A stretch of 64,000 nt of DNA from Rhizodiscina lignyota (lineage: Eukaryota). The stretch lies in assembly GCA_010015805.1 (NCBI GenBank), contig ML978126.1:1550001-1614000 (forward strand), in the 5' to 3' direction. Positions within the stretch are counted from its first letter, which is position 1. Each line of letters opens with the position of its first letter. Position numbers and translations under genes: made by a program. The notes below the pieces were generated by a model. The model worked only from the letters and a program-made list of their open reading frames with translations. It ran no database searches and was not told the DNA's origin. Positions 16,831 through 64,000 of this stretch are shown here, piece after piece.

Positions 16831-19800
16831 ATGGCCGAGCCAACGCAGAAGCTGAGCTTCTTGAAGAGTCTTCCCCCCTCCGCTGTCATTCTCTTGACTG
16901 CTCTTACCGTATCTACTGTTGTTTCATCTGCTGCATTCTACAAGATGTTCAAGAGACTTTCGAGGAGATTCTCTAATGCTAAAGATTTGAATGGCGACAG
17001 TAATGGCGAAGCGGTCTATGAAAAAGAAAAAACCAAGGCGAGGAAGGACTCTATGGGGCCGATAAATGGCATGACGAATGGCGTTACTGAGACGAACGAC
17101 AGCGGTTCTGACAGAAAGGGAATCGCGGAGACGTTCGGTGCTTTTGCACAACTCATCCATGCCGCGCAGCGTCCGCTGCCGATGCAGACCGGCGATGGCT
17201 CGTACGTTGAGCACGAGGAACATTCCGGAATGTTGGCAGACTTAAAAGCTTTAGGGTTCAAGGATGCGAAAACTCTTGCCGATGTGATGAGGAACAAGAC
17301 GAAGGGCGAGTACGTCGATGATAAGACTTATCTCATGGAACGAGTGATTCAAGTGTGTGTCCGTTACTTCAATCAATCTTTGGCTAACTCCGAAAGCTTG
17401 TGGCCGGTCTACCCTCTCTTTCGAAGACTCGTGTGGATCTGACAAATGCATTCGTCGACGAACTTTGGAGCTCGCTGCAGCATCCACCGCTGTCATACAT
17501 GGGTGACCAATTCACCTACAGACAAGCAGATGGGTCATACAATGTAGGCACGCATTCCAGCAGCTGCTGATTGGCTATTTACATGAACCAGAACATAATG
17601 TATCCACATCTTGGAGCAGGTAAATCATTTGTTGATGCATCACAGTGTCACAGAGTTTAGATAGCTAACGTTGACAAGCGAACACGCCGTATGCAAGAAG
17701 CGTGATCCCGAAGACGATACAACCTGGTGCTCTTCCAGATCCTGGCCTCATCTTCGATTGCCTGTTCGCCCGCAACGAGTTCACGAAGCACCCGAACAAT
17801 GTCAGCTCGATTCTGTTCTACTGGGCCTCTCTGATTATCCATGATCTGTTCCAGGTAAAAATCTCCTCTTACTTATATCACAAGCCCTCATTGAGAGCTA
17901 ATTTATGGGGTGCCTACAGACTGACCACCACGACTTCAGCATCTCCAAAACATCATCGTACCTCGACCTGAGCCCTTTGTACGGCGACAATCAAGACGAT
18001 CAGGACCAAATCCGAACATTCAAAGATGGCAAGCTCAAGCCTGACTGCTTCTCGGAGCAGCGTATGCTCGGCTTTCCGCCTGGCTGTGGTGTCATCCTTG
18101 TCATGTTCAATCGCTTCCATAACTATGTGGTCGAGCAGTTGGCTGTCATCAATGAGAACGGAAAGTTCACAAAGCCGAGGGAGGGATTGGAAGGAGAGGT
18201 GGCAGAGTTGGCATGGAGGAAATATGATAATGACCTGTTTCAAGTAAGTCATTTCTCTTTTTGGTGATTTCGAGACATGCCTGCTTACGACTTCCAGACC
18301 GGCAGACTTATCACCTGCGGCCTCTATATGAACATCACCCTCAATGATTATCTCCGTACAATCGTCAATCTGAACCGCTCCAACACAACGTGGACACTCG
18401 ATCCGCGCGTCGATATGGATGGCCCCCGTTCCGTCTTGGCAGAGGATGGAACTCCACGTGGCGTTGGCAATCAGGTCTCCGCTGAGTTCAATCTGGTGTA
18501 TCGCTGGCACAGTGCGACGAGCCTTAGAGACGAGGAATGGACTGAAAGAATGTACAATCAGATGTTTGGGAAAGGAGCCGGTGAGGTGAATATGCAAGAG
18601 CTCTTGACGGGACTGGGCAAGTGGGAATATGACTTGGACAAAGATCCTACGAAGAGGCCCTTTGGAGGAATGCAGAGAGGTGCGGATGGAAAATATAGCG
18701 ACGATGACCTGGTCAAGATCATTGCAGACAGCATCGAGGATTGTGCTGGTAAGATTGCTACCGCCTTTTTCGTGGACAATATTCGTTGATTAATGTTTCA
18801 AAGGATCCTTCGGCGCAAACAATGTTCCCAAAGCGCTCCGCTCCGTCGAGATTCTCGGAATCATTCAAGCTCGCAAGTGGGGTCTCGCGACGCTCAACGA
18901 ATTCCGCAAGTTCTTCGGACTGAAGCCGCATGAGACCTTCGAGAGCATCAACTCAGATCCACAAGTCGCCAACCACTTGCGGCATCTATACGAGCATCCA
19001 GACTGGGTGGAGATGTACCCTGGCCTTGTGGCGGAAGAGGCTAAAGTGCCAATGGTACCAGGTGTGGGAATTGCGCCAACGTTCACAGTCTCAAGGGCCA
19101 TCTTGTCCGACGCTGTATGTCTTGTAAGAGGGGATAGATTCTATACGACAGACTATCATCCTAAGAACCTAACCAAGTATGGCCCCTTTACCCTTGCACT
19201 TATGCAATCCTTCTGACAACAGCATTAGTTGGGGTTATACCGAAGCACAATACGACCTGAATGTTGAACAGGGCTGCGTTTTCTACAAGCTGTTCCTGCG
19301 CGCTTTCCCGAGTCACTTCAAGCCCAACTCGGTGTATGCGCACTATCCTATGACCATTCCAAGCGAGAATAGGAAGATATTGAAGACCCTCGGCCGCGAA
19401 AGTCACTACTCCTACGATCGACCGACCTTCATCCCACCGCGAGTCAACATCGTCACATATCTTGGTGCGAAGGACGTACTCGAGCGACAGGATATCTTCA
19501 AGGTGACTTGGGGCCTGACTACAGCTGAATTGATGCGCGGCGCTGATGGTGGTGGAAGGTTCATGCTGTAAGTCTACTTCGTGAGCTGCACTGGTCGGCG
19601 TGGATATTGACGAGTCTAGTTCCGGCGATGGACCTATCTTCTCGAAACAAAGGGAGACCATGAGTAAGTCGCTCTATCGCGAGCAATGGCATCAACACAT
19701 CAAGGAATTCTATGAGCATATCACGTTGAAATTGCTCCACGAGAAGAGTTTCAAGCTCGCAGGTGTTAATCACGTCGATTTCACCAGAGAGTAAGTCTTC

Positions 19801-43415: not shown

Positions 43416-44876
43416 CTAGTCTTCCTCGATAAGACTGACTGCGCGTCGGCCCCTCGGCTTAAATGCAACTGAGAAAGGCTTCGGCTTGCTTGTCAATTCA
43501 GATGTCATCTCCATGTCGTCCACCTCTTGTCTCACGCCATCCACGTAGGCAGGCTCGATGTCGAAGGCCCACAGCATGCGGGCGATGGCGATGAACAACG
43601 AGTTGACTGCGATGTGCCGACCAGGACATATGCGCCGACCAAATCCCCATGGATGTTGAGGTAATTTTGGATTCTCAAGCCACCGCTCCGGCCTGAAATT
43701 CTGCGGGTCTCCGTAGATCGACACGTCCATGTTTATGGACCAGAGATTTCCGATGACGATTGCTCCCTTGGGAATTCTGTAACCCAGATACTCATCATCC
43801 TCGGCTGCCGCATGTGGCACGCCTGCGGGAGTGATGTGCCGCCAACGCATTATTTCCATGATGAAGGCGTTGACATAGGGCAAGCGCTCCCTGTCTTCGA
43901 AGCCTGGTAGCCTTTGGACCCCAACGACACTATCCAATTCTGCTTGGGCGGCCCTTGTCTTCTCTGGGTGGTTCAGGGCTGCGAGGACGGCCCAATTCAG
44001 TTGTCCCGCGGTTGTCTCGAGCGCGGCGCTTGCGAGGATTCCTAATGAGTATGATAATTCGATTGTGGATAGGTCTTGGGCTTACTTGGATGTTGAAAGC
44101 TTTTGGGCTATGTTTTCCTCTCTGGCCTGAAGACCGTGATCTAGATCTTTCGCGTACAATCTTGACTCCATTTCGTAATATCTCTCCGCTGTTCGCTTCC
44201 ACGGTGCTAGAAATGGTGGAAGATAGTTCAAGATTGGAATGGCATCCACGATCCAATGGCCAACGCGGAGCGCCTTTACCTGGTTGCCAAGGACTTCATA
44301 GTTCTCTACGAAGGACTTGTCGTGGGGGCTTGTCACACGGAATCCATACATAACGGAGTATATCGCACTCGCCGCATACCGCTTGAAAGAAGTATCGAAA
44401 TCACCCGTCAATAGCAGCTCCTTCATAAGCTGCTTGCTCTCGAGATCCTGTTGTGGCCGATATTCCTGCGAAGCGGACTCATTCACCGCGCGGCCGACCA
44501 TCCGTTGGATCAGTCGCAGTTTCGGATCGTACTGGCGGAGTAGTGTATGCATTCCTTTCGTCAAACATTCGCCGGCCATTACAAGGCGTGGCCTGTTGCT
44601 GTAAATGGTACTGCGCTTGTTCAGTACGCCCTCGGCGGCGTCGGGCGTTCCAAGCACGACTATCGTATCCTTTCCAAACTGAACACTGTATATCGGACCA
44701 TACTGTTGAGTCCATCTCGCATACGTGAGGAACGGAAAGTCGATGGGCGCTTGGTGGAGGTTTCCGATAAGTGGAAGCCGGCGAGGCCCAGGAGGGAGTC
44801 GATGATCTCGTCGGCGCTCGTGAAGCCGAACTGCTATTAAGACAATAAGACTGAGCAAGAGGCCAATGGCCAACAT
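43416..44876 (-). pseudogene. Cytochrome P450, intronless, with one in-frame TAA at 44082-44084
   Basis: N-terminal anchor, PPGP, I-helix AALETT, EIMR, PERW and FGRRICPG all lie in one frame across the stop. Confidence 0.85.
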
Positions 44877-46452
44877 CTCTTTCTTCCTCCGTTCCAATCA
44901 GTCAACAATGAAGCCGCCTTGTTTAAAGCGCCTTCTAAAATTGACAGTCTGTCGGTTGTGAGTAAGCGAAGGCTTAACTATCTCTTCAGAAAGGCCGTTG
45001 CGGTCTAATTGGCGTGATCATCGGTTCTACTGTGCTCCTTCTCAGCCACAGAGACATGGATACCATGATGGGTCTACGTCTGCGATATTGCTTGACCTGT
45101 ACTCCATCATGATATAACCCTATCGGTGGGGTCTCGCAGAATATGAGACACTGGCGTCCTACGATCAGCTCAATAACCTATGTCTGGATATACCCGAATC
45201 CTAGCGGCAGATTTCTTATTGGAGGTTAGGAATAAGTAATGGGGCCTAAGTCTGATCGCATTTGGCACGGCTATCGGCAATTTCAAAGAGGGAAATGCAA
45301 CTTGCGTCGACAACATCCTGAACTGTCGCTGCTATGTTGACAATTAGATCTTCGGTAAGGTGTATACACCAGTTGTTGCCTTTCAGTTCTGACTGCCACA
45401 GCTCCAGGTATGACAATATCGATGCTCCCTTGCTATATCACGTCAGCCTGCGCCACCGACTCGTCCGTTAGTCACGAGCTTGTCTTTCATCGTGCAGAGC
45501 TTACTACCGTACATCCACTTAGCACTCACCTGTATCATTGTTCAGTGTCCCGGTCCCGGACCTCTGCTCTTCCTTATGACCATCGCGTCGACGCCATGCT
45601 TAAGCCCATTGTATCGATGTTACAGAGGGTTGGCAACCTTGTCTTTGTTGGTGGCCTCCTTCGCCATCTTGCTGCGCTTTGTTTCGAATTATATCGTCTT
45701 CGGCTAGATTGTCATGATGAGCTTCTTGAGTACAGCTGGTGCTTCGTCCTTGTGTAATAGCTTGTCATATCAAGTCAGTCTGACAACGATGTCGTCTTAA
45801 CCATGCTGTCGATTAGAGCTTCAATGCCATTGTTTACATCTTTCTTAAACTCGTTGTATTTCCAAAAACGCCGACTCTCTTTCTTCTCGACTCCCTTGGT
45901 CTGCTCTCGCTCGAAGGATTGGTTCGTACTGATGGTTCATGATATGGTGCTGTTCGCGGAAGCAAGAATATCTTTTGTGGATACACGATCGTGTTGCTGT
46001 TTTGTGTCCATCACGACCAGCAACAGTTGATGTTTTTACAACCATTGGTTCGAACCCAATTGAAGGGAGTGTGAGATGCTTTGGGAGAGGCAGAGCCTTG
46101 CAGGAGGCCTTGTTGAAAACATGGACGCAGGATATCTAAACGGTAGAGTCAGTCGGGGCCTTGCAGAAATGTAAACAAGTCACGGAAGATGGTCAAGTAG
46201 TCCAAGGCTCAAGGCTAACAACAGATAGTGACAGCTGTTCCGCATTCTAGACTATGATGGTGATCCAGCTGTGGTAGCACTAGGGCGCATCTCAGAGTGT
46301 GGCTATTCAGTTCTTGATTCGTCAACGATCAGCTGAGCGCGCCGTGGTCACCCGTGGTGCTGTCCTTACCACTGGGAATTTGAGGTTAATCGCCATCCAG
46401 CGGCCCGCGAAAGAACTAAGGACCACGAAGGTGCTAGATACCTTTCTCAGGA

Positions 46453-46460
46453 TATATAAG
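46453..46460 (+). promoter_or_regulatory. TATA box of U2-like gene A
   Basis: TATATAAG about 44 nt upstream of the U2-like 5' end, followed by a CT-rich tract. Confidence 0.6.
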
Positions 46461-46496
46461 CTCGCGGTTCTTCGCCCTTCCTCCTCTTTTCTTCTT

Positions 46497-46684
46497 CAGT
46501 TCTCTTTGCCTTCTGGCTTAGATCAAACGAAGATTTTGTTCTTCACAGTTTAATCTCTGTGACAAGACTACGGTCTTTTCCTTGATTATTCAAATATTTG
46601 GAACCAGGTCGGATTCCTCTGTGCTTGCGCACGTTTCCTGCCACAGTGTCGCCGGTATTGTACTACCTCCGGCTGACGCGAACA
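46497..46684 (+). ncRNA. U2: U2 snRNA-like gene, variant A (branch-recognition sequence GAAGAU)
   Basis: Stem I TCTCTTTGCCTTCTGGCTTAGATCAA; stem IIa TCACAG-TTTAATCT-CTGTGA; stem IIb AAGAC-TACG-GTCTT; IIc complement GATTA; Sm-like AATATTTG; GCTTGC at loop III; stem-loop IV with ATTGTACTACC; about 188 nt. Confidence 0.85.
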
Positions 46685-49600
46685 TTCTTTTCTCATTGCT
46701 GCTTCCGCCTTGTGCGGGGGCCTGACGAAGAAAGATCTATTCCTGCCTTGTCTTTTTGTTGTCCTTGTTGTAGTTATTATGACTAGGTGGTTTGGCCTTC
46801 ATGACGCGCGTACCATTGTGAGAGGGTTGAACATTTATGAAGGATCTAGTACATATGCACCTCGTAAGAAGGAGGGCAGCCTGCTTTGCAAGAGTGATAA
46901 AGGCCTCGGAGTAATTTAGACAGTAGATGCTTTATGGAAGAGAGCATTGATAATACTAAGAACGCTTTGATGTTAATTACCTTTTCCAAACAAAGAATTC
47001 AGTGGGAACAAAGCAGTAAGGTTGACTAGAACCATTGCCACTGCCCATTCAAAATAGAGTCGCATTATGATAGTGATCCTATGATTTTCTAAGAGCTATT
47101 GGTGTTCAGTTGGCAAACCGCGACGGAGCGAGAACTGGCTTGGGCTACAGCATTCCGTCTGCGGAAATTTGTGCCAGCTGTAAGCCATTCCACATTCAAA
47201 GCAATAGAAGCAAGCTCTATTGCCTCATAAGGTATTTTAAACCGGTTCCCACCCGGATTTCGACCTTTATCGGTAGTGTAACGTCGCCCAGAGCTACAGG
47301 AGACGGCGTTGAAAAGCGGCCCCTTCACCAAAACAACATTACCAATTCTGTTCAGAGCTCAAACGACAAGTACGTGCCCTATCAATACTGCAAGCACGTG
47401 AATAGACATCAACCAAGACTGAAAAGAACCGTTCTTCAGCTTTCTCTGGAGTTTGTGGCAAACCTTTGCTTATCTCGGACTCGGAGAGAAGGAGATTCAC
47501 GAGTTTGTCCAGCTGCGCGCGCAAATTGAGCGGCTATTGACCCAAACAAATCCAAACTCACACAATAGAAGACCAATATCTAACCAACCGAATTAAAGTC
47601 AGAGGAGTAACCGTCTGTGGTTACTGCTGTAGTTACCCTCAACAAGTCGATTCCCCGACCTCTCTACCGTCCCCACCCTCCGCGCCTTAAAGGCTAGCTC
47701 ATACCGTACACATATTTATGGATATCGAAGGCATGTATATATCTGGGATACGCTGAACTCATCGTCAGAAGGAGAATGGAATCTGTGTGCATGGCTGGCA
47801 TCCAGGTGGTTTTACAATATTGGAATCGCCTGCAAAGAGAGACCATATTCAGAAGATCTGAACAGCGAATGCAAGGCGATCAAGCGCTGTTAAGCATGAA
47901 GTTCTGGCTCTTAAAGGTCTATTCTAACGCTGGTGGACTTGGTCTTTGGAGACTCGATCGTGAATTGTTTGTATTCGGCACACTTGGTGAGTTTCTTCGC
48001 TAGCGCATCGAACACTGCTTTCCAGAAGAAAGACTTGATCCTTTGCGTTGATGTTTCCGATATTACGCAATACAAGAAATCATAAAAAGGACGTAGAACC
48101 ACCTTGCCACCTCTTACTACTCAAGTCGTATATTAAGAGCAATATTAACTTGTCTTCTTAGGTTTAGAGAACTGAGTACAGTCTACCTTCGCAGAATCTA
48201 TCTCTGCTATAGTCGTCAGACGTCCTTTCTCAAGACTAACCGACCAATTCTAGTACATAAAGACCCTTATCCTTATCTCTCCCCAGAGTCAAACAATGTC
48301 ACAAAATCCCGATGCAGGATTTATGAACAGTCCCAACTCCGCGCCTTTCTCACCGAACCCTATTTCCGAACGGCGCTTTATCGAGAATCTGTGCTGTCAA
48401 CTACAAAGTTCGACAAACTTGGCTAGAGCAACTCAAGTCATATGGAAAGGGCGGAGGTGGAAAGGATCTTTGCAACTCATGACGATTACGGATGCCTAGT
48501 GAGGAAGATACTCTGAGACAAGAATTGGCGAGGACTTTGCAAAAGATCCATCTTGCTCAAACTACTCTTGTGGAGTGATACTAAGAAGAGGACAGAGGTT
48601 CTGCTTTGGGAGTCGGATACAGTGCATGGAAAGTGGAAGCTCAAATAATCAATTTTAGATTGCCACTACTAGCAAGGCGTGTATCTAGATCAAGTTTAAC
48701 TCTCTAATAGTCCTAAATCTGAAATATGTACTGAATCACAAGCGGATGGAAAAGAATCCTTTTCGACTACTCTTTAGCTCAAATCTATCCTACGCCGCTA
48801 AACGGCGACTTTTGCTTTTGTATGGCTGCCCATCCTTATACATTCCGTCCAGATCAGCGTCCGCCCGTTTATTGACCTGTTTGAAGAAATGTAAGGCTCG
48901 ATAAATGTCTCGTCTTTCGTCGACATGCGTAGGTAGGTGAGAAGGAAGTGTGATCGTCTTGGTGGAGCAATTTGAACTGCAAAAGAATCAGGCAAGCTTC
49001 TCGGCCTGAAAACTGGAAGCCTGCACTATCTGCGGCGTACATGGCTCTGTTAAGTATAATCTAGTCAATTATGCCTTTTCGGAATGACTATAATGCTTAG
49101 GGAATGTCAGCACGTTCTCTGTATCTTTGCATTTGTGCTGAATCGAAAGGCTGTAGCAGCGTCTTGTTATAGTCAGAGAAGAACGCGCTTCTGGGACAAA
49201 GTCCGCCTTCTGATATTGAAGAATATGATACTTGTCATATCTGACAGAGTCGAACTGACTCGAAAGAGCTGGCGAAATGCTTAGGGTGGCCAACACAAGC
49301 ATTCTGCCCTCCTTTTCAATTGGCTAGACTCCCGGCGACGAACTCAATTAGAAGCTCTATAACCGCTATCAATGCCAATTTCCGACCAAAGGTATGTATT
49401 GGGGGGAGGAAGATCCGTTTGCGATCGAGAGAGGAGTAGGCGGCTGGTTGAGTCGTTTAAACTGGGTGGCTGTGGCGCGCGACACAGTTATTGAGTTGAA
49501 GTGTGCGGAAAGTGTAATGTACGTCAAACCTAACAACCGCAGCTTAGGGAAAGAACTAAGCACTGTGATGTATCGAGAAATTTCGTTACTAACCGCCGGA

Positions 49601-51017
49601 TAGTAGCGGCCGATTGACTGACTGAGACTGCTGGTCACTTCGCTCTGATTGGTTGAAATGCTTTCCCGTTTCGCTATGGTCCTTGCTACGACTGTAGCAT
49701 CGGAGAGGGTTTCAAATCAATTCGAGAAGCTTCACGGAGAACTTAATGTTTTGGAATCTTCAAGGCTTGTAAGGAATCAAATGTCGTTTACGGGGTTGAT
49801 GTCTGTAACTGGTGATTGTTCAAGCCTCTGGAAAGCCTCACTACCAAGCGAAGCGGCGTGTAATTGTAGCTAAGTAGCAGAGACGCTGAATTCTCTTACA
49901 ATGTTCTACTCTTTATAAGCCTTTTCGGCGTCTCCATTGTTGATATGGGTCCACTTTCGCTGAACGCCCATTCATCAGCACTGGAAAATAGTCTACAACG
50001 GGCCTCAAACTGAGACCCTTGATGGATCAACACTTGGAAGATTTCGTATGACTCGAACCTAGCGAAGAGTACGTTAATACCGAGCAAAGCCGATATCGAG
50101 TAAGCCTCTCTTATGAGACTGGTGAACTGTTTGCATTGACGTCGCATCTCCGCAGAGGGAGTCAAGGCGCTTAAGTGTACAGGTAGTTGTCGATGGTAAT
50201 GATTGGCATTAAATTGATGACCTCCGGATATGGGAACACCATGTCATTCTTGGTTTTGTTACTATCTCATTCATGCTGAAGATTACGGAATAAGACTTCG
50301 TGGCGAAGGACTGTATTGGAGGGAATGTCAAGATAAATTGTCGTCGACTGGTCCACCGTCGCAAAACAAGAACGCCTGCTATCGAATCTCGATTGGACAA
50401 GGCGAAAAGAGAGAGCGAAAGGATATCGAACAAAGCTGTAGATCAAAGGATTATTGTAAAGGATGTACAACTCGAGAGTAGGCAACCGATATCACGGCCC
50501 TTAGGTTTACATTCACGGCGCCCATATCCGCAAGGAAAGTGCATTAATCTATCGTTTAAAGACATTAACTACAAGCATTGGACTGTATAAGAGTCCTGAG
50601 ATATAATTATTTAATTCCGATAGGTCTAGCAATGCAAATATCATGACCAGTCCGTGAGCCTTTTCCTCGCCAGCATTACCAGGAGTCAGAGACTCCACAG
50701 GCTACATTTTCAGGGTTACATAAATAACATCCAGTCCTAATTGGTTGTGATCATTGTAGAAAAAGTTTTTCGTATAGTAGAACTATAGAAGGCTTCTTAT
50801 ACACACAAGAGTAAATATGCAAACGGAGAGCAAAGCTTCTAGGTCAATACCGTTACGCACACAAATCACCAAACACTAAGAAGCCTATGTAAATATAACC
50901 ATATCATAAACCCAAGAGAAAGAGATCACTATGTATCTCCAAGAGTAAACAAGATTCCAAATCCATTTTCTTCCTCATGCGCCTGTTCGGGACAGACAAA
51001 ATGATGAAGAAAAAAGT

Positions 51018-51210
51018 GGCCAGGCGTCAGAAGACGGTAGTGCAAGGTCAACGACACCAGGAGCCTTTAATCCAGCACGTAGCGCTTTCAATGGCTCCGA
51101 AAACAAAAAATTAAGCATAATCTTGATCACGCCGTAGCGTGGTGACAGAGATTAAACTGAAAAGAACGAATTATTCGCTTTCTCAAAGCCAAAAGGCAAT
51201 GAGATCGCTG
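51018..51210 (-). ncRNA. U2: U2 snRNA-like gene, variant B (branch-recognition sequence GAAUAA)
   Basis: Stem I TCTCATTGCCTTTTGGCTTTGAGA; GTTCTTTTCAGTTTAATCTCTG; stem IIb CACGC-TACG-GCGTG; GATTA; Sm site AATTTTTTG; stem III GGAGCC/GGCTCC; loop IV TTGCACTAC; about 192 nt. Confidence 0.85.
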
Positions 51211-51247
51211 GAGAGAAAAAGAAGTCGAAGAGGGGAAGAGGAGGTTG

Positions 51248-51255
51248 TTTTTATA
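51248..51255 (-). promoter_or_regulatory. TATA box of U2-like gene B
   Basis: TATAAAAA about 45 nt upstream of the 5' end, followed by a CT-rich tract; same geometry as gene A. Confidence 0.6.
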
Positions 51256-52461
51256 CCCAGAGACAGAGAGAGCTTGGGCCCAGTGCCAAGAAGGAGCTAT
51301 CCCCTTTGAGGTATGTGCCATGGTCTAGGGTGACGTATTAGATGCGTCGTGAAGAGTCTAGGATTATAGGCAGTGTAGGAGTGTATTTGGCATGTGATAC
51401 AAAGCTACGTGACGTTTAGGCTAATGTTTACCAGGTGTCACTCACGTTTATGTGGGCCCTTTCCATGCTAGAAGTGTATTAAACTCATGGCTTTGCTCTT
51501 TATCTCTGGCTTTCCAGTGGCAAAGACACTCATTGGCTGCTAGGACCCTAAAGTTACTCACTGTCCTACGTGACGTACCTGTTCATGCATCACGGACCCC
51601 TTTTTAACTTTTACAGCCATTCCACGGACATCCAAAAGGTGTTGGGGTTGTCTAGTGCAAAAGAAATAGTTGTCATAATCTCACCAGCTAGGATTTCATT
51701 GGCCAAGCGAGTAGGTACGTGAAGTATGGCCGTTATGTGTCGTCAGATTATGTCAAGTTTTGCGTGATTGTGGAATTAGCTGGAAGATTGGGCGCCCACG
51801 TAGAATATGGGCTCCCCGGAAACCTGTAGGTTAAGACTGGTATCTGTTCGGTAAATAAAGAAACTTCTGGCTGCGTAGAATTCCGTTGGTGTGAACACTT
51901 GTTTGTCTAGTCCTTGGCAGGCTGGAGGGACTACTCGTTTATTGGTTCGAGTGCGCTTTGACCTTAATGAATGCTGGTTGTGTGGTGCTTATCCGCTGTG
52001 GGCAAACTATCACTGTAATCGAACTATTACTGCACGGAGATTGTGTAGTTTGGCGTGCGCATGTAGGCAGAGTATAATGATTGCTCTCTAGTGAGTAATC
52101 AAAATAAACTAATTGAACAGACGCTGTAGTAAAAGCATTACAGGTCCAAAGAATTTATCGTGACAGAGTTTATTGCCAAATAAGCATGCAAGACCATGTT
52201 GTATACATAACCGAACATGGGAACTCCCAGCACGCCATCGCATTGAATCCACAGCCCACTGCTCTAAGAATGCCTCAGAGGATGTCGAGCAATTCCACCC
52301 TCTTCTACAGCCTCCATCCATCCTATGGGACTAATTGAACTACCACAGGCGATTTTAATCTACAGGCTCAGGGACCCAAAACGTCTCAATACCCATCTAG
52401 CAAACCCAGAAGAACCATTTCGTAAGTATCAGCCCCAGAGGGCTTCCAGGTTGATCGTATG

Positions 52462-55400
52462 TTAAGATAAAGATGCATTGCATTCGTCCATATTGCTTCG
52501 TTGTCTACAACTCGTATTGCCCAGGTCTGCGAAAATAGGACCCCAAGAAGCGAAGCTGTCCATGCGCCACCATATCGAAGCACTCCAGTCCGCACCTCGC
52601 GGTTTCATTGCGGTTTGATCGTCCATGCCCCAAAGAACTCTGAGCCTAAAGAGGCTTTCGTTTGTGTTTGGGTTTGGCGCTTTTGCCATCTCCGTGTAGT
52701 TCGTGAACGCAGGGAGGTTCTGGGAGGAAATGTGGATGGGTGTGGATGGCTGGTCGATTTGTTCCGGCCGATTGGGAGGATGTCCATTTGCGAAAGCTAA
52801 GGTGGAATTATTTCGTAAGATTACTTCGGCGTGGCTGGAAACCGTCCAGTTCTCATGCACGCTTGTCTTCTGACATTCTCCACAAGACTAAGATAGTCAG
52901 TTAGCAAGAACATCACGAATAGGGCCAGAAATCTTACTGAATGTAACTCATTGAGGAGCTCTGCTCCTCTGGACAGGCGGCCACGGACACCAGCAACTTG
53001 AGTATCAAGATTCGCTGCATCTATCAAAGGCGAGCGGAAGAAAGAGGAAGAGAAGTCGCTCGGCTGTCGATATATGGGCATCGATTCTTCTTGCCTTATC
53101 GTCGAGACCGTGATGATGGCAGCAGCGTGCTCTTCAATCAGTGATTTGTTCTTTGACTGACTATTGTTATGGTCCCAGCAGAGCGACTGGGCCCAGATAA
53201 ATCGTAATTGCAATCGGAAAGCAATCTCAATTGCTTGCCTTAATAGTGGAGATAGAATGCTCATGCTGCACCATTTCTTCAGACGGAGGCGTTGGATCAA
53301 CCACTCGCTGCAAACTTTGCGGCTTCCACCCAATCCAGTCAGATCCTCCAATGCTGCATATTTCGGTGTGACAGGAGGAGGGCCAATCTCTTTCGGGACA
53401 ACGATTCGAACAGCGAAACCGTGGTTGGCATAAGGTCTGAATTCCAAGAGTAAAGGCGGAAAAGTCTCCGTCGAGTAACCGAACAACTTCGTAAAAGGGG
53501 CTCCCATCCATCGTTTGGTACAGGCAACCTCTCCTTTTGGTGGTATTGCAGATTTTATTTTAATATTCCACCAGAAACATAGTACGTCCGAAGGCAACGC
53601 CACCATTGTATCGAAGTCATCCAATGGATGAAAAACAGTTCGATTGTTGGCAGGTGTTCGCGTTCGAAATGCAGCTTTCACCTTCTTTGGAAGCTGACGG
53701 AGAACGCCGAGTCTTGGCATTAGCGGTGGAGGCACTAGATGCATTGCCCTTGAGAGGCCAGAGACCACCTCTGCAGCCGAAGGACGCAAAGTTGCGTCAA
53801 TGTGAACCATGCGTGAGCAAATGTCAAGCAGGCGTTCACTGAGAAGAGCGGGTGCGCCTCGAACCTTTTTGATTTGATCCTTCACGTACTCTGATACAAA
53901 GCCGAATCTGCCTCTAGTGCCTCCAAGAACATTGGAGGTGGACTGTTGGAGTCTGAGGATTCGCCGAAAGTCGAAAATAGAGGAATGTGTCATGACGATG
54001 ATTAGCTCCAGGAAGACACAGCCAAGTGAGTAGATATCAGACTTCTCTGAACGGTGACTTGAGAGAAATACCTCCGGCGCGGCATATGTTGGAGTCAGAG
54101 TGTTCGAGAAGCGCGTTCCGGACTCGATTTGCTCAGTTGTCGAGGTGCCGAAGTCTGCAAACAAGAAATTGGTCTTTGCAATTAATATATTTGCTGGCTT
54201 GATGTCGTTATGGAGGAGGTTGTTGCTGTGGAGATAAAGCAGTCCCGTTGCGAGCACTATCAAACCACGAACGAGCTGATGTAAATTCACGTCAGGATGT
54301 TTCCACGGGCAGGAGGTAATGATCAAGGTCAAAGTCGGCAACGGGCTCCATTAAAAGGCTGAGATTCCATTCAGAAGCGGCGACGATGCGCACACAACTA
54401 GAATGGTCGACTTGCTTCATGATGTCGGCCTCGTGGCGGAACCGGCGCGCAGCATCTTCATCAGAATCCTGCCGATAGTGATATTTACACGCATACTCCT
54501 GCCCCGTTGGACTGTAAACAACCTTTTCAACTTTCGCAAATGTTCCCTTCCCCAGTTGCCCCCGGCTGAGTAACATCGAGTTCCAGCCGTTGAGATGGAA
54601 AACGAGAGCGCCAACAAGGTCGATGTGCTGCGTAAAGGCGACAACTGTTGCCTTACGCTCTCGGCCTGTTGGCGAGCGATGAGAGGATTTCGATGGGGCG
54701 TGCGAATGGGTCGAATGTGTTGGGTTGGATTGGGAGGACAGCTGGGAGTTAGGACTGCCACTTTTCCGTGTGCTATCTTCTTGAACTGAGACTTTCTGCC
54801 CTTGCGGCGCTTCAATCAAATTCTCTTGAGATTGAGTGCATGTACTGGAGCTCTCTTCTGGCCACCTGTGGTTGTACTGGCTAACATCCTTCGTAATCTC
54901 CGGGAATTCGCCGTCAAAATGTTCCTTGAGGTGCCTCATCCTATCCTCGAAAGACTTGAACCGCGTGCCACCCCAGCCGCAGCGCTTCTCAAAGGTTGTC
55001 TGAAAGGAATATGTAGAAGCATCAACAACAATACCAATGGCATCAGTATTGAGGCGATGTGCTCGTGTTCCTAGATGTGACCTAACTTTGTCTCGTCGAA
55101 AACCGACAAACGGCTTCTCTTCCCCGTTGTCGAGACAAAGCTTACACACCCACACTTCTTGTGGTTGGCGAAGGACTTCATGCCGTATCCACAGATCTTT
55201 TCGTGTGAAGGATCGGCCACAGCCGTAGGTGCAGTGGTACGGTTTCGAGGGGTCCACTTCTTCCGGATGAGGGGTTTTGCAATCGTGCTCGCGGGCCTCT
55301 TCATACTTCTGGCGGACGAAGCGCCAAATCCTAGCCTCATAACTGTCATCTTCGTCAGAGAAGCTAATTGGCGCCTGCTGAGCTGGAGCAGGAGGATTAT

Positions 55401-56135
55401 GTGAAGACGGAGCTCGAGGTTGTTCCAAGCCTGAGAATGCAGACGATTTATTTCCAGGACGGAGTAGTAATGAACTGGTAGATGATTCCGCTTCGTTCTG
55501 TCGGTCTAGTTTCGCTTCTGCTGGCGTGTGCAGCTCGTTGTTTCCAAATTCGTCCGACCTCCACAGTTGAACTTCATCAAAAGAGCATCCCAAACTACTT
55601 GCCAGGCCTCTCAGCTGATTCTCAGAAGGTCGTCCATTATACTTCTCCAAAAAAGGTCGTATAACCCGGAGATCCGCCTCATTTATAGAATATTGCTGAT
55701 GAACTCTTTTGGCTGGAGACTTTCTTTCTGCATCTGCTGATGCCCTCGATCGCTTCGTCCCGCCCTCGACAATATTAGGCGCAAATTCCGGTGGAGTCTG
55801 AGAATTTGGCATTCGAAATGTGCCATTTTGACCCTGTTGAAAGAACGGTCGAAAGTCATTTATATTATTCAGGGATTCGATATTTGGGGAGGAAAAGGGG
55901 TCAATCAACAGATTCTGGCTGTAGAAGCCGCTGTCTCTCGACCGCCACGTGGCGTCGGGGTCACCATTATTGGGCATCTACAAGCAGTCAGTGGTCTGCG
56001 CTCCTCACTATCAGTAAGGGCATTATGGAGTTGGCGTACCAAAGCACTGGTGTGAGCCAACTCATTGTTTTGGTCTTCAGCCTCGTGCATGACTTCAGGC
56101 AACTCGGTGACAGCGAGTCCATTGTCTGCAGGCAA
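52462..56135 (-). pseudogene. Homeodomain-like/C2H2/Ser-Thr kinase/HET-like fusion, copy 1 (frameshift near 54310; true start uncertain)
   Basis: ORF 54292-55977 carries the homeodomain-like segment, C2H2 fingers, GKGTFAKV, YACK and the alphaC Glu. It continues in ORF 52821-54341 (HNDIKPAN, DFG, APE, HET-like). Introns 56039-55978 and 52937-52888 are both phase 0. Confidence 0.75.
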
Positions 56136-57114
56136 GTCTAGTGATTCGTAGCCCTCCCATAACTCGGGGAGAACGAAGGGCCCGTCGCAGGTCCCCTCCC
56201 CGTTCCCTGAAACTCGACGTCGTTACCCATGGCTTATAACCTCTTGCCTTTGGGGGTCGCACGGCGACATGAGACGATAGTCAGGAGAGAAGAGTTGTCG
56301 TTCCATCGTGGACACGCGGTGCGCGCTCATTTTGCTCGAGTCGAGGGCGAAGGGCGACAGAGCCTCCTCCACCACCCTGCCCAGCTGTGACACCCGGCCA
56401 TCTCCGCCCCTCGTCGTGGTGAGGCGCAATTGGTGGATTGCTGGACGATAAAGGGTCGTATACGAGGAGGCCACACGCTCTATGCGTTGGTTCGGAGCAT
56501 GCTGAAGCCTGGAAAGGATGAAATCAAGACGTTTCACGATGCGGATACGTCAGACGTGAGGATGGGCGGCGGCGGGCCATGGCCTATGGGGATATCCCTG
56601 CGTCGGTGTGGCGTCGACTGGGGAGATGCGGATGGAACAAATGAACCGAAGTTTAACCGGCTGCCAACTTGCTGCGGCAGCAGTATATCAGTCTAACAAG
56701 TCGAGTTACCGCCTGCCCAAATCACAATGCAGCGAAGGCTTTTGGTGCATCAAGCTATTCCGTAATTGTTCTTGCAATTGTAATGTCGAGTTTCATTGCG
56801 ATATAGACCGAAGATATAGACTGAACGGAGTGGTTATCAGAAGGCCGCCGGCATCAAATAGAAAGTAATTCATCAAATCATGATCATATCAAAGAGAAAA
56901 CAGTTCATCATGTCATAAATCGTGAAGCATCCAGTCATGACCCACATCAAACCATGCAAGAACCTAAAGGAAATCATTGACCCCATCATGAGCCTCGTTA
57001 AATCATGCCCACGAATGTCCGAACATCCCCATGCCATAGAACGCAAACTATGCTAGTCCGTAACAATGCATATGCAAAGCCCATAATCATGCATCCAAAG
57101 CGATGCTCGAAGCA

Positions 57115-59830
57115 TCAACCGTCTTTCTTCAGAAGACTCCATGACATGCCATATGCAATATGAGATTTACAGTTGCAAGACAAGAAAAGGTACGGTCGAA
57201 CGGCGTCTCCAAATGAAGATGGCATGCAAATGCTCCAAGCTGTCAAAGAAATTTCGACCAGCAGCGACGACAGTACGGAGTGCTTCATACATCCGCACCT
57301 TAGCGGCGGAATAGATAACGCTGCCCAAGCCCCAGGGTCGGCTTCGCGATGTGGGCAGCGCTGTTCGTTCGGAAAGTCGGAGAAGGTTGTCGCCCATACA
57401 GCGGCGATGGTAAAGCGCAACAGCAACATTTAGGGAGATCGGAGTGCGGCTTGAGGATACGAGACCTCTCGGGATCAACGTCGACCTTCAGCCTCAAAGT
57501 GTTCTGATTACTGTTGCGAGCAGGTCGGACCAGGCGAACGCTGAGGTTGTTGGAAGAGGTAGAGTCGAACTCCAGCAGAATCGAGGGAAGTGATTGTGTA
57601 GATGAGGGAAGACTGGCCCGAGGCCAGCGACGACTATTAAGGTAAGCGCGCCGGTGTCTCCTGGAGCGCAAGATGAAGGGGGAGTCCAATCTAAAACTTT
57701 TATTGGCACGCTGATCGTACAATGCATTCATCGAGGAAATGTCGTCAAGATCTAGCGGAGACGAACCCAGGCTGGTGCGTTCGGGGTGGTCGCGGTGATG
57801 CAGCAAATCGGAAGTGTGAAAATGTTTCCTTGGTAGAAGCGATGTTGTGATGATGCGCATAATCTGAGTCAGAGACACAGTGACTTCAGCTGTAGTTGCA
57901 CGTTGAACAGGAATTGGATTAAGCATGCAGCAGCAGAAATCTGAGAGTCGTCCCGCACTTAGAGAACTCGTGTCGCCGAGCTTTGCCTTTATAGCCAGCA
58001 GCGTCCGGGTTATGAGCTCTGAACGAAGAACAAAGGCTCTGTTGTTGATGCGGTCGCCCCTAAAGGAACGGACTTTATTCGCATTTCGATGGCGCCGCGT
58101 ACGAATTCGCCTCGGTTTAGGCGACGGCCCACGGAGCATAACCAACGCAAGCTCCAAGAAAATGCACCCCAGAGCACAAATATCGCACTTGGTTGTGAGA
58201 TGCAAAAAGTCGGGGGTATCTGGTGCTGCATACATTGATGGCGATGGGCCAGACGTGGTAGTGTTATCGAGGCCGATGTACATTAAGTCCGTTTCATGAA
58301 TGAGGGTGTCAGCAGCTTGAACGTCGTTTTGGACCATATTGAGGTTGTGAAGATATGCAAGACCGCTGGCGATAGCAATGAGTGCGCGGATAAGTTGGCC
58401 GGGCCGAACATTGGGGTAGATGTCGTTCAGGAGTTGTATAATACTAGCATCCATGTTGAAAGGCCGGAGCTTTGTTGTTTGTCGGTGTAAGATCGACTTC
58501 CCAGCATGCATCGACAGGGCCCGTTGATGCGCGACATTTTCTACGCGAGCCGGTGTACCGTACCACAAAGCCTCCATGCTTCTCCATATTTCAGCCGAGA
58601 AGCGCAAGTGCGCCGCAAGACGCAGAAGGAAATCCATCTGAGAAGAGAGCGAATTATAAGTCAGACTAGCCATTCTCTGGTCGACAGTGTTGCTGCCCGG
58701 GCTAGCAGTGATCGAGTTGTTGTGATCGTTCAAGCTTGCGCCAATGTGTCTGCGCGGGCGGCGTCTTGTCCGAGGGGAATATGCATTTTGACGAGGATCA
58801 GAAGCGGTGGCCTGGTGGCCTGGCTTCTTTTTCCCAGCGATTCGATTGCGAGGCTCATAGTTATCAGGCCAGTTGCGACTGTATTGTGCGACATTGATTG
58901 CAGGATAGATGCAGTTGGAGTAATGTTCGAAACGCTTCGAACGGTTCACGAAAGACCTGAACCTGTAGCCACCCTGCCAGCGATGCGACCCAACGGTAAG
59001 CAGGTTTGGGTTGCATTGGGAGAGTGAACCAGTGAAAGCGACATCGAGGTCTTCTTCTTGCAACAAGTGAGCTCTGACTTTCAGGTAATGTTTCGTCTTG
59101 TCTCTTTTGAATGCGATAGGGGGGTCGGATCTCTCGTTCCTTCGGCGGGCAGGGTAAACCCAGATCTGTCGGGGCTGCCGCAGCGTCTTATGCCTTTCCG
59201 AGTTGTCCCTCTTCATCAAGGAGGAACCACTATTCCACATACATGGATGGGTAGTGCCACGCCGGCCATCCTCAGCTGAGTGTGAGCCACTATGGGGTTG
59301 CTGCGCAGGCTGCCGTACAAGCTGTATGGGCGTGAGTCTTGAAATTGGAAACTTGGTCGCTGGGCTCGGTAGGGCCTGCAATGCTCTGGTAGCTCGGTGC
59401 ATGGTAAAGTGGCGGTGAGTGAGAGACCGGTGAGGAATGGATGCCGCTCTGAGACTTTGATTCGCGTTGTCGATTACATCGTTGCCCGAGGGAGAATAAA
59501 TCGGTCGCTCAGCATGAAATGCGCGTCTGAAATCCTCACTCAAAGTCAGACTTCTATCTCCAGAGCAAAATGAGAGTCTCTGGTCCTGAAGGCCAACTTT
59601 GTTCGGGTATCTTTCCATCCAACCGCGCTCACGGGCGACATTCTCCTCTAATAGCTGAGCGCATGTTGCTTGAATAGGATTCTCTTAGTTTGTGGTTCAA
59701 CACTCCCAGGCTCATCCTGGAGCCTCATCACTCTTTCCACTTCGTTGTCTTTTCGTCCCACATGTGAAGCGCCTATGGCAGGCGGCCCCTGAACAGGCAT
59801 CAACGGGCTGGGAACATGTTGAGGGTCCAA
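57115..59830 (-). pseudogene. Same fusion family, copy 2: degenerate zinc fingers and pseudokinase
   Basis: 772-aa ORF is colinear with copy 1 (RHKTLRQPRQIWV, FKRDK, GLAYLH, YAAPD, DICALGCIFLEL, LPSILLEF). The HET-like tail is split across frames. Confidence 0.65.
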
Positions 59831-61287
59831 CTGCAGGGAGAGGTTGAATGTGGTAGGGAGAGTCAGACCTGTCAGGTACGGTCGGAGAATATGTGTGGCT
59901 GGAATGTAGAATGCTCATGACTGCAATAGCCGCTATCGTCATTCCACGTGTCGTGGGTACAGGCCGCGGAGGCTTGATTAATTGTATTGGTCGCCTATTT
60001 CCTTTTAGCATCAATAAGAGTCGCACATGTAGACATGACATACTAGGATAGCTGCATCAATATGCATCCTGCGCTCGACAACGGCGACGCGGTAAGCTCT
60101 GGCTGGAACGTGTCTGGAACAAGCCTGGAAAGGCGGGAGCCCTTCAGGTGACTGGTCGAATAATCCCTCTCTATGGAGTTTCTCTATCCCAAGCCCAATA
60201 ACGTCCAAGACGAGCTATGAACTGAGCGGCTACAGCCCCATTGCGCCATACGGATTCAGCAATATTGATGCTATTCGGGATCGGCTCGGGGGAGACAGGT
60301 CATCGATCCCAAGGCCCCTGTAGGCAACTGCTGCATCGAACCATCATGAAGGGCCAGCAGCACAGGGAGGATGTTCTTCATCCGCGCTTTCCGCCCTTCG
60401 CACAGGGTAACTCAGGGCGGAGGGTGAGTCGTGGGATGCCATCATTGGCTGGCGCGATTCACAGAACGGTTTCTTTGGGTGGACAACGGAGTTCAAGAGA
60501 GTGGGGGTTCCTGCACGTTGGCATGCGTGGAAGCAATCGAAGACGGCCAGCTCGAGAGACAAGCAATTGTAGCCAAATGTCGTGGCGATGCATTTGGATG
60601 GGCATGTGAAGGAGTTGGAGGTTGATGTGGAGTTCCCCAAGGGGATTTTCGGCACCCCCACCCGACGATTTTCCGCCCGTCCTTTTCTGACTCCCACTCC
60701 CGATTTTATCACTCAAATGAGTGATTTAATTACGAGGACATGGTTGCAGTCATCTCTTCTCCTAGAACTGATCTTTATCGTGAGAGCAACCATGCTTCAA
60801 CATGCCTAGGTCTGCACAGAGTTACTGCGTCCTGTGGATCTATCTGTTACCGTCGAGTCTCCGAAGCTGGAGAATCTACATTTTAGGCTCTAAGATCCTA
60901 TTACAAGAATAACTCCGCATAATAGCTCTTCACAGAGAGAAGCGCTATTTGCGATGCAGAAACTAACAAACTATTGGCATGCGGTGTACACTATTAGAGT
61001 ATTGCTATGAGATGTACAGTCTCCAACCTCCTCGTGAATCGCTCAACTCGTCCCACTTTGACTTGATATATAACGACGAGCCTTGAATTGCGTAATCTTT
61101 GTGTGTGATGATAGAAAGACGCTACAGATAACAACAGCTATTCCCTACTAAGCAGCCTGTATCAGCCCCTCCATAATCGGAATGAAGATAACTCATGGTA
61201 TGGAATCGAGCCCATAGAAGTGCTATCATTCACCACACAAGACGCGAACAATGCCTCCGCTTCATTATTCAAAACTCATAACTCGTA

Positions 61288-64000
61288 TCATATCCTAAAC
61301 TTCTTGAAATATGGAGCCCACGACGCCGCACTGTCAATATGCCACCAAGAAAATTTGGTACCGTGTGAGCAAATGTCCTCCTCATTCCCGGTCCATGTTC
61401 CCAATCCAATGTAGGCCCTCAACAAGTCCGGGCCATTCCTATTCAATATAAGTCCTTCAATATCATTAAAGACGTATGGTGCCTGCGGAGATGACCTGCT
61501 CCGGTCATGCGAGCTGGTTGGCGATAAAACATCTCCAGCCGATTCTGCTGAAACTTGCGAGACAGATGGCATCGATGTTTGCGATTTAGCACAGTTCTCT
61601 GGTTGCTGCCATGAAGATTCGTTGGATCGAAGGAAGGACTTGGCTTCAACAACATCTGATGCCAATGTCTCCTGCGATGTTGATTGTATGGGAGACCATG
61701 ATGCACTCCCAGGAGCCTAGATACGAGTAAGCGTTTGAAAAAGATAAGATGAACTTATCAACCATACCAGGATCTGCTCAGCAAAGCTGTTCTCCGATTC
61801 CGGTATCGCCCGCATTTCACTTATTCTTTCGAGGGCAATAGACAGCTTGTGAGTTAATTCAGAAGATAAATGTTCGCCTGGTTTCGCCAGGCGATATGTC
61901 GATCTTCGAAAAAAGTAAGCTTGGTTTTCAGACACTGGAGCGACGGTGGAAGCGATAATGATGGCAAAAGCCGTAGAACAGATCAGCGCGGTGTCCTCAT
62001 GCTCAGCTGAGCAGATCTCCTTTACCCAGAGGAAGTTGACATGAAGCTGGACCGTGATGGCGATTGCATGTTGCATAGAGAGCCCCAAGCTTGAAGGCTC
62101 AAGCCAAGTTCCTGATGCCAAACTTCTCGCATCTTCGACTGTATCAGGAGATATCCTCAGCCAGCTGTGGTCAGTGAACACCGCATACTTCGTGTCCCAA
62201 TGCCCAGGACCAAAAGATGAAGTTTCCACGAGGGAAATCCGGTGGACCTTGCCCTTAACAGTGCTGATCTCGAGAAGCTTGGAGGGTAGCCCGCTATGGT
62301 CTACTGATTGATGTGAAGAGCTTTTGGTTACGGCAAAGTCAGGGGACGACAAAGCAGGTGGCGGAAAAGCGATTCCCCAGCGCAGAAGAAGGTCACTCGC
62401 ACGCCACGATTGCCTCTTTCCGAGTTCTTGAGGTGATATATTCGGAACAGTTGTCTTTTTCCATCCCGTGCAGTCTTCACTGAAGTGCAGCGTTGCCCAA
62501 TTTAGGGATAAAGAGCGAGGGATGAAGTTTAGCAGTCGATCAAATCCGACTGCAATTTGGAGAGCAGTGGGGCGTGCAGAAGGAAGAGGATTGAGCATAG
62601 CGGCCGCAAGTACCCAGAGGCCCTCGAAGAGGGAATCGCATTGATCATTGGCGGCTCGCTCGAGTTGTCGGTTTAAATACCGTGCCGTTGCAGATAAACG
62701 ACGTCTCGTAAATTGATGTCCATTCTGACTGAAAACTCTGGAGACAAGATGTTCGCGGAGCAATTGGACTGAGCCTTGAGTGAGAATCACAAGGACCTCA
62801 GCAAAAACCGCACCAAGCGAGAAGATGTCGCTTTTCATTGTATGTATAGAGGATGAGAGAGCCTCTGGCGCAGAGAACATCTGCGGCATGTCTGATGCAG
62901 AAATCTTGATCGGCCGCGTAGCCATCTTCGTGGTCAAAGAATTACGCTCCGTGGTTGAACTTCCGAAGTCCGCGTACAAAAACTTCGTGCGAGCAATGAG
63001 AATATTGTCCGGTCGGATGTCGTTATGAAGGATTCTCTTCTGGTGAAGGTAGACCAATCCATCCACGAGTGCAATAAGACCAGCAAGGAGCTCGTGGCGC
63101 TGCACACTGCTGTAGTGTTTCGGGTCGAGAAGGTATCGCTCCAGATCAAAGTCGGCCACGGGCTCCATGAGCAGGGTTGGTCGCGGGCCTTGTGACAGCC
63201 CTGCCACAAATCGAACGCAGCTGGGATGGTTAATGAGTTGCAGAATCTCGATCTCACGTTGGAAATGCGCCAAGTCGACACCAGTCGCCCCTGGCTCCCG
63301 AAGAAGTTTCTGGGCGTAAGAAAAGCCTGTCGGGCCGTGTCGAATTTCCTCTACCCACGTGAAGGTGCCGCAACCAAGAGTCTGCACATTTTCAAAGCTG
63401 TCGCTCTGCTCCGAAAATGGAAGCACAAGAGCTCCAAGCAAATCAATGCGTTGTGCGAATGTAAATCTGGCTGCGTTATGAATAGCTCGGTGGGGTGCAC
63501 CAGAGCCTGATGTCGACGTTGCATCATTCATGAAATAAGCCGGCGAACTAGAAATAGAAGACGGAGAGAGCGCGCTAGAAGGACGCGTTATTGTCGTGCA
63601 GTTCCCAACAGCTGCAGGGACGGTGGCAGTATTGCTCACGGATGCCTTTCGCACTTTGCAACTATCCGGGTCTTGTTCAGGCCAGTCTCTAATATAGCGG
63701 GTTCCGTTGCGACTTTCATAGTAGTCGTGAAAGTGATCATGGAGATGGTTCAGTCTGTCTTTCCAGCTTTTGAATTTGTATCCCCCGAATCCACAGCGGG
63801 GCTCGAACAGTCGAGCGTTGACAGGCCTCGAGAAAAATGACTGCTCCACCAGTTTTTCTGTACTTTCTCTTCCTTGTGCATGGACTTGCGCCCTGACTAA
63901 ATGGTCTCTCATTTTGTCCTTTCTCAGAAACAACTTCGGGTCTTTTCTGCCCTCCCTTCGACACAGAATGCAAAGGTACACAGCTTGAGGTTGGCGCATC
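61288..64000 (-). CDS. Same fusion family, copy 3: C2H2/kinase/HET-like, apparently intact (5' end outside window)
   Basis: CILC...H...H and RCGFGG...HLHDHF fingers; GCGTF, YAQK, HNDIRPDN, DFG, APE; LPSKLLEI...KYAVF...QHAIAITVQLHVNFLWV. Intron 61767-61717 links in frame to ORF 61288-61665. Confidence 0.82.

Follow-up and report, generated by a model that had tools for sequence, protein, structure and literature searches.

Few eukaryotic RNA sequences are as invariant as the segments with which U2 snRNA pairs to the branch site and to U6. U12 is a U2-like RNA whose branch-recognition sequence is a different one and which needs a U6-like partner of its own, U6atac. In the trypanosomatid Leishmania major, the U2 that carries UUAUAA is the working U2 of the organism. 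The replacement of GUAGUA by UUAUAA is documented for U2 of this species (PMC4950102). Human variant snRNAs, including U2 variants and vU1, are extra gene copies altered in the branch-recognition sequence, in the U6-pairing sequence or in stems IIa/IIc, and expression is reported for human U2 variants in which these regions carry single changes (PMC8457000). One human U2 variant is described in Sm immunoprecipitates and in U2 snRNPs, being absent from spliceosomes, and the variants singled out there as associated with spliceosomes each carry a single branch-recognition change (PMC8457000). Here we describe a locus, U2-B, which resembles the human variants as an altered extra copy, but in which four of the six GUAGUA positions and two of the four helix Ia positions are changed and whose setting is a compact, fungus-like genome. 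U2-B differs from U12 in being plainly derived from U2, and from the trypanosomatid U2 in being an extra copy within a genome whose candidate introns look ordinary.

The window, by which we mean the whole 64,000-nt stretch of DNA that was analysed, is eukaryotic and fungus-like, with about 50% G+C and dense open reading frames, whose encoded domains include those of protein kinases, M20 peptidase and HAD-UPRTase; its intron candidates are short and of the form GTAAGT...CTAAC...CAG. A scan of the window with all Rfam models gave exactly two matches over the gathering score, both to U2 snRNA, and a permissive cmscan to E 10 added no other spliceosomal RNA. The two copies, U2-A and U2-B, are convergent, with 4.3 kb between them, and blastn and nhmmer searches with both as queries found no third U2 copy in the window. 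U2-B matches the full covariance model of RF00004 (model positions 1-192) with 79.8 bits and an E value of 4.2e-14, over the gathering cut-off of 46, and thus belongs to this family; its whole RNA has a minimum free energy of -62 kcal/mol (z = -3.55 relative to shuffled sequences). Judged by homology and fold, U2-B is a genuine, strongly altered extra copy of a U2 snRNA gene. The features of both copies are collected in Table 1.

Table 1. Features of U2-B and of its sister copy U2-A, in window positions
Feature	Position	Strand	Remarks
U2-B RNA body	51015-51209	-	Rfam match 51205-51015; 5' end A51209 placed by alignment with canonical AGCUCUC... starts
TATA box of U2-B, TATAAAAA	51248-51255	-	starts 56 nt upstream of TTGCC
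Pyrimidine-rich tract, TATA box to RNA start	51211-51244	-	pyrimidine fraction 0.85
Extended stem-loop I, UCUCA..GCC-UUUU-GGC..UGAGA	51181-51204	-	TCTCA (51204-51200) pairs with TGAGA (51185-51181), 5+3 bp; -12.4 kcal/mol
GAGA in place of canonical GAUC (helix Ia strand)	51181-51184	-	from sequence; GAGAA at 51184-51180
Hairpin AGCGAA-UAA-UUCGUU enclosing the branch-recognition position	51165-51179	-	-3.1 kcal/mol
Branch-recognition hexamer GAATAA	51176-51171	-	within the hairpin 51179-51165
Residual stem-loop IIa, CAG/CUG	51146-51159	-	3 bp; -1.0 kcal/mol
Stem-loop IIb, CACGC-UACG-GCGUG	51128-51141	-	5 bp; from folding
AGAUUA, complement of stem IIa loop UAAUCU (stem IIc-type)	51118-51123	-	in the minimum free energy fold of nt 47-105
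Sm site, AAUUUUUUG	51104-51112	-	from sequence
Stem-loop III	51060-51098	-	6+4+5 bp; from folding
Stem-loop IV	51023-51058	-	upper stem with two U.U mismatches
Loop IV motif, TTGCACTAC (also given as UUGCACUAC)	51045-51037	-	from sequence
3'-flanking hairpin, U-run with GA-rich AUGAGGAAGAAAA	50965-51015	-	12+7 bp; -17.8 kcal/mol
Stretch of U2-B sequence, GAGAAAGCGAAUAAUUCG			
U2-A, sister variant	46496-46687	+	RF00004, 112.7 bits
TATA box of U2-A	46453-46459	+	
3' hairpin of U2-A	46688-46735	+	

What has changed in the 5' domain of U2-B? The initial annotation held that GAUCA is replaced by GAGAA with extension of stem I, that the branch-recognition hexamer GAAUAA lies inside a new hairpin, and that stem IIa is weakened to about 3 bp; all of these features were recovered. 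The two sequences required of a spliceosomal U2, GAUC in the helix Ia strand and GUAGUA in the branch-recognition position, read GAGA and GAAUAA in U2-B, whereas GATCA is present in 116 of the 116 fungal-type U2 matches listed. Stem-loop I is longer than usual and keeps the GGCU of the helix Ib strand; a canonical locus and U2-A both have -7.7 kcal/mol at this place. RNAfold returned the 6-bp hairpin of the branch region both within the whole RNA and in isolation, compared with 0.0 kcal/mol for the canonical sequence. Only the CAG/CUG part of stem IIa is left, three of six pairs, with the loop sequence conserved (canonical stem -4.7 kcal/mol; U2-A -7.2 kcal/mol). The stem IIc-type complementarity UAAUCU/AGAUUA is retained.

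The individual changes on the B lineage can be followed in an alignment numbered so that GAUC occupies columns 26-29 and GUAGUA columns 34-39. U10>A and A25>U together flip a pair of stem I, with pairing kept; such a compensatory flip has, by rough estimate, a chance probability of about 13%. U28>G and C29>A, which make GAGA out of GAUC, pair with the unchanged U2 nucleotides C7 and U6 and lengthen stem I by 2 bp. In stem IIa, A66>C and the change A65>U, which is shared with U2-A, break two pairs; U2-A compensates here through U50>A and through U49>C with A66>G, giving the stem UCACAG/CUGUGA. By established pairing rules, canonical U6 would lose two of the four helix Ia pairs through GAUC to GAGA, which agrees with the impairment of helix Ia that had been proposed. 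The strand around U10 pairs with U6 snRNA in helix II, and U10>A would also place a mismatch in the U2 strand of this helix.

The 64-nt 5' domain folds with -16.5 kcal/mol in U2-B, -15.9 in U2-A and -12.4 in the canonical sequence. When random substitutions were introduced (5000 trials each), folds at least as stable were obtained in a fraction of 0.025 for canonical to B, 0.032 for canonical to A and 0.044 for A to B; with 13 random substitutions in canonical sequences, 97.5% of the resulting versions are thus less stable than the 5' domain of U2-B. These statistics are modest, and suggestive of selection rather than strong evidence for it. Both copies retain G26-C46 and A27-U45, the basal pairs of the branchpoint-interacting stem-loop as published. 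The register of the human stem-loop includes G25-C45 and C28-G42 (PMC13019295), and the hairpin of U2-A and U2-B differs from it in register. The RNAalifold consensus of the canonical set pairs columns 24-43, outside the published register, and was therefore not used as a reference structure.

The overall architecture of U2-B is that of canonical fungal-type U2 (RF00004), with which it has in common stem-loop I, the loop of stem IIa, stem-loops IIb, III and IV, the Sm site, the loop IV motif, the distance of a TATA-type promoter and a 3'-flanking hairpin, while it departs from it in GAUC>GAGA, in GUAGUA>GAAUAA within a closed hairpin, in the 2 bp added to stem I, in the 3-bp stem IIa and in U10>A. 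As the initial annotation held, no damage is seen in the Sm site, in stems IIb and III or in loop IV; upper stem IV has two U.U mismatches. The Sm-class arrangement of RAU(3-6)GR followed by a 3' stem-loop is present, as the Sm site is followed by stem-loops III and IV. The loop IV motif, CCUUGCACUAC, has the same CC-U-U form as in canonical loci (for instance L005 and L006) and is predicted to bind U2A'/U2B''. U2-B keeps the parts from which a core snRNP would be assembled, namely the Sm site together with stem-loops III and IV, including the motif of loop IV, as had been expected.

The canonical sequences used for comparison come from a scan of metagenome contigs with a frame pattern common to U2-A and U2-B, in which N stood at the loop position, at two positions each of stem I and helix Ia, and at every one of the eleven positions of the branch region. 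The pattern occurred at no fewer than 116 loci, and all 116 matches listed read GATCAA-GTGTAGTATCT, including GATC and GTAGTA; the branch-recognition pattern of A/B type was found at 0 loci of the metagenome contig collection. Searches of an open-access library listed no account of a fungal U2 subfamily whose branch-recognition sequence has been rewritten. All 20 canonical loci that were scored, out of the matches listed, reach 135.2-163.9 bits with the Rfam U2 model, a range that makes U2-B a far outlier and under which U2-A also lies.

U2-A has GAAGAU in place of GUAGUA, with the branch sequence GAUCAAACGAAGAUUUUG, and forms the same shifted hairpin as U2-B; unlike U2-B, it keeps GAUC, has a compensated stem IIa and is near-canonical in its 3' half (77% identity to a canonical locus in this half, compared with 59% for U2-B). 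We aligned both copies with 83 unique canonical sequences from the matches listed. Of 66 columns that are at least 99% invariant, U2-A differs at 11 and U2-B at 14; both differ at six of them, and have the same base at five. These shared derived states are U33>C, U35>A, U38>A, C41>U and A65>U. Three of them, U33>C, U35>A and C41>U, have made an alternative pairing that was weak into a perfect 6-bp hairpin with a 3-nt loop (pairs 31-45, 32-44, 33-43, 34-42, 35-41 and 36-40), and one lineage-specific change in each copy, G32>A in U2-A and U42>C in U2-B, converts a G.U pair of the same hairpin into a Watson-Crick pair and so strengthens it. The shifted hairpin therefore looks selected, not accidental. 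On sequence grounds the two copies are sisters in one derived subfamily, and since they share derived states and U2-A also is without GUAGUA, U2-B descends from an ancestor that was already variant. Identity between them is 40/60 over positions -60 to -1, 53/67 over nt 1-67, 64/118 over nt 68-192 and 30/58 in the 3' flank. In stem IIb, U2-B differs from U2-A (AAGAC/GUCUU) by three double changes that preserve pairing, all of which could have arisen on the A lineage.

The subfamily seems to extend beyond the window. One public run, X1, covers the region (44000-53999) in the form of Logan contigs with a depth of about 155x, and this run is possibly the assembly's own data. At 80% likeness or more, 24 records of X1 were aligned, all of them on copy A except the flanking contigs of the locus itself. 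Two contigs with other flanks (23,571 and 8,151 nt) span the 5' half of U2-A, and three (16,372, 3,304 and 71,889 nt) span its 3' half, so that at least three further U2-like loci exist. As there is no differing letter over 46527-46544, both 5'-half contigs carry the variant branch sequence of U2-A, and the A type is therefore a multi-locus subfamily; one of these contigs has GAUC>GAUU and the other A25>U. Over U2-B only its own contig was aligned, and the depth there is that of this contig alone. Two properties of X1 bear on how these alignments are read: summed contig depth is not equal to copy number, and contigs that resemble human DNA are left out of the set, canonical U2 5' halves being nearly identical to human U2. 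That none of the aligned contigs has a canonical GUAGUA copy is therefore uninformative. Canonical U2 genes are expected elsewhere in the genome, given the ordinary CTAAC/CTGAC/CTAAT branch motifs of the intron candidates in the window. Among 102 crude intron candidates, many of them false, CTAAC is enriched 2.2-fold and CTTAC 1.7-fold (8 observed), the latter too small a number to be meaningful in so noisy a set. One candidate, at 18244-18297 on the plus strand, has the branch motif GCTTACG, which would pair with the GAAGAU-type sequence of U2-A better than with GUAGUA.

The flanks of U2-B have the layout of an active fungal U2 gene, in which a pyrimidine tract follows a TATA box that lies 45-65 nt before TTGCC, and a hairpin adjoins the 3' end. 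TATAWA occurs within 130 nt upstream in 68 of 96 unique canonical loci from the matches listed, mostly 45-65 nt before TTGCC, and its chance rate at that place is 125/20000 random points (0.6%). The distance from TATA box to TTGCC is 53 nt in U2-A and 56 nt in U2-B, both of which fit the canonical layout, and the upstream pyrimidine fractions of 0.80 and 0.85, respectively, compare with a canonical mean of 0.75 (sd 0.11). In 6/6 canonical loci that were folded, a U-run after the 3' end pairs with a GA-rich, GGAAGAA-like tract 30-60 nt downstream. By a rule-based count, 69 of the 85 unique canonical loci from the matches listed have this 3'-flanking hairpin, with a mean of -14.9 kcal/mol; it occurs by chance in 16/3000 random segments (0.5%), and in 3/3000 with -15.9 kcal/mol or better. 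The hairpin of U2-A has -15.9 kcal/mol and that of U2-B is free of mismatches; the outer stem is common to both and the inner stem is wholly different. We liken it to the RNase III-type 3'-processing signal of yeast U2 genes, and it probably serves as such a 3'-end processing signal. Taken with the altered core, these flanks make U2-B, on present comparison, a variant snRNA gene that is unusually extreme and whose gene architecture is unusually well preserved.

Based on these observations, we propose with moderate confidence that U2-B is transcribed into an snRNA of U2 descent that assembles with Sm proteins, has a locked 5' domain and would be non-catalytic with canonical U6. The human U2 variant present in U2 snRNPs and absent from spliceosomes (PMC8457000) is a precedent. 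U2-B would be a lineage-specific Sm-class snRNA gene, sister of U2-A, which retains signals for transcription, 3' processing, Sm loading and loop IV binding. Its 5' domain would have been remodelled into two stable hairpins, the extended stem I and the closed branch-recognition hairpin, with a weakened stem IIa. The RNA may then enter a U2-like particle that could form neither the standard branch helix nor helix Ia nor an undisturbed helix II with canonical partners, and for this reason the particle would be non-catalytic; ordinary splicing is probably beyond it. What could such a particle do? It may occupy proteins of the U2 snRNP, as a passenger or a decoy, or its RNA may have acquired a new role. 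We set at even chances the view that the features for biogenesis and stability have been kept, and the three contacts of the catalytic core (branch helix, helix Ia and helix II) given up.

The pattern of substitution bears on this reading and also on its most serious competitor, namely that U2-B was for most of its history a working member of the A-type subfamily and has lost its function recently, so that changes which disable it (GAUC>GAGA, a stem IIa that is lost, the U.U pairs of stem IV) accumulate and promoter and 3' hairpin have not yet decayed. We consider this relic unlikely, though by no means negligible. Relative to the canonical consensus, U2-B differs at 61% of variable, 27% of highly conserved and 21% of invariant columns, and U2-A at 49%, 8% and 17%, respectively. 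As canonical pairs differ at 59% of variable columns, the variable columns of U2-B are saturated, yet the contrast with conserved columns is kept; neutral drift would lose this contrast, and U2-B was therefore constrained for most of its history. Relaxation in U2-B is shown by the excess of change over U2-A at highly conserved columns, by the broken stem IIa, uncompensated in U2-B and compensated in U2-A, and by the U.U pairs of stem IV. These signs, together with an Rfam score that is the lowest of all U2 loci examined (79.8 against 135-164 bits), speak for a relic and against the locked snRNA that we prefer, the excess at highly conserved columns being what relaxed selection would give. The same direction is indicated by X1, in which several other contigs lie on U2-A and only its own contig lies over U2-B, and by the position of U2-B in an ORF-poor segment of about 8 kb without Pfam hits.

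Set against this are the mismatch-free 3'-flanking hairpin, stabler than the canonical mean, the TATA box at its proper distance, the B-specific compensatory flip in stem I with two further pair-creating changes, and the intact stem IIb, stem III and Sm site. Neutral divergence of about 20%, the level to which the excess changes would correspond, should have put mismatches into these helices, and would not be expected to leave stems I and IIb, the outer part of stem III and the 3' hairpin flawless. Loss of promoter or flanks and general decay of helices, the marks of a processed or decayed pseudogene, are not seen in U2-B; there is damage, however, to stem IIa and to the upper part of stem IV. 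With signs of relaxation on one side and intact helices and 3' hairpin on the other, altered rather than absent constraint is favoured. The suggestion of the initial annotation that U2-B might be an early-stage pseudogene is weakened by the family-typical promoter, the hairpin of 3'-processing type and the compensatory flip on the B lineage.

The initial annotation also considered a co-evolved U6 variant. [quoted passage not shown] Such a system, which we regard as improbable, is consistent with the intact gene architecture and 3' domain and with the conserved base of the branchpoint-interacting stem-loop described above, and the UUAUAA of Leishmania (PMC4950102) is a precedent for a working U2 without GUAGUA. 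Several simultaneous co-changes in the partner RNA would be required, however, and the window holds no U6-like sequence by cmscan to E 10, none of its 10 ACAGAGA sites having U6 context (two of them are the antisense of U2 stem IIa loops); likewise, the covariance-model scan of the window at E values up to 10 gave no match to U12 or U6atac. The ordinary branch motifs of the window intron candidates also speak against it. Finally, stem IIa is needed for prespliceosome formation, as is known from yeast genetics, and in U2-B it is reduced to 3 bp.

A wider possibility, which we hold to be quite improbable, is that the A-type copies and U2-B together make up a lineage-specific second class of U2-like snRNP with a selected branch hairpin, in which the A-type copies would recognize a shifted branch motif close to CUUAC[G] and U2-B would either have a co-evolved U6-like partner or act as a non-catalytic regulator of U2 snRNP supply; if true, the U2/U12 split would have a recent analogue that arose independently inside a fungus. 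That the locus is an artefact of assembly or a chimera is extremely improbable, as nothing specific speaks for it apart from the U2 repeats that break X1 contigs at copy A, and a 22,511-nt X1 contig spans 46652-51400 with 0 differences (which is not independent if X1 is the assembly's own data) and a coherent U2 fold with flanking signals is unlike a chimera.

What are the implications of a U2 copy of this kind? U2-B is a natural experiment in which the contacts of the core have been rewritten while the promoter and the Sm site, the hairpin for processing and the loop for protein binding have been kept. It bears on the fate of a spliceosomal RNA that is released from catalysis, be it decay, a decoy role or new specificity. 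If U2-B and the A-type subfamily are expressed, variant snRNPs, so far studied mainly in animals, extend to fungi, which offer the genetics for a direct test of variant snRNP function. A silent U2-B would be a relic of an snRNA, preserved unusually well and of limited interest.

The surroundings of the two copies deserve brief description. About 8 kb around them (44900-52800) has a lower G+C content of 0.44-0.47, and from 44.9 to 52.8 kb there are 0 ORFs of 150 aa or more and 0 Pfam hits across ten tested ORFs (89-150 aa). Within it, the segment 47418-47446, which matches the hairpin region of U2-B at 22/29 positions, was considered as a third U2-like fragment and rejected as a chance likeness (nhmmer E 4.9, flanks without U2 features), and a repeat at 50439-50455 was likewise rejected as chance. 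At least three genes with protein kinase domains adjoin the U2 pair at 52821-63999, all on the minus strand (52821-55977, 57300-59618 and 61717-63999). On the other side of the pair, a gene lies at about 44.1-44.9 kb.

Two observations concern the canonical loci. One metagenome contig (locus L013) carries, besides its first U2 5' part, another at 1-81 on the minus strand, at a distance of about 210 nt and in divergent orientation; this second part has the canonical branch-recognition sequence and diverges after CAGTTTT, where the locus ends. Among fungi, a few yeasts are known to have introns in their snRNA genes. In eight of the canonical loci (L001, L002, L006, L011, L012, L018, L024 and L026) a short spliceosomal intron appears to be present near the 5' end, about 60-10 nt upstream of TTGCC. 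These candidate introns have the form AGCTCT(C)/GTAAGT or GTCAGT ... CTAAC/CTGAC ... AG/(C)TTTGCC, where the first and last slashes mark the splice sites, and their removal restores the usual AGCUCUCUUUGCC.
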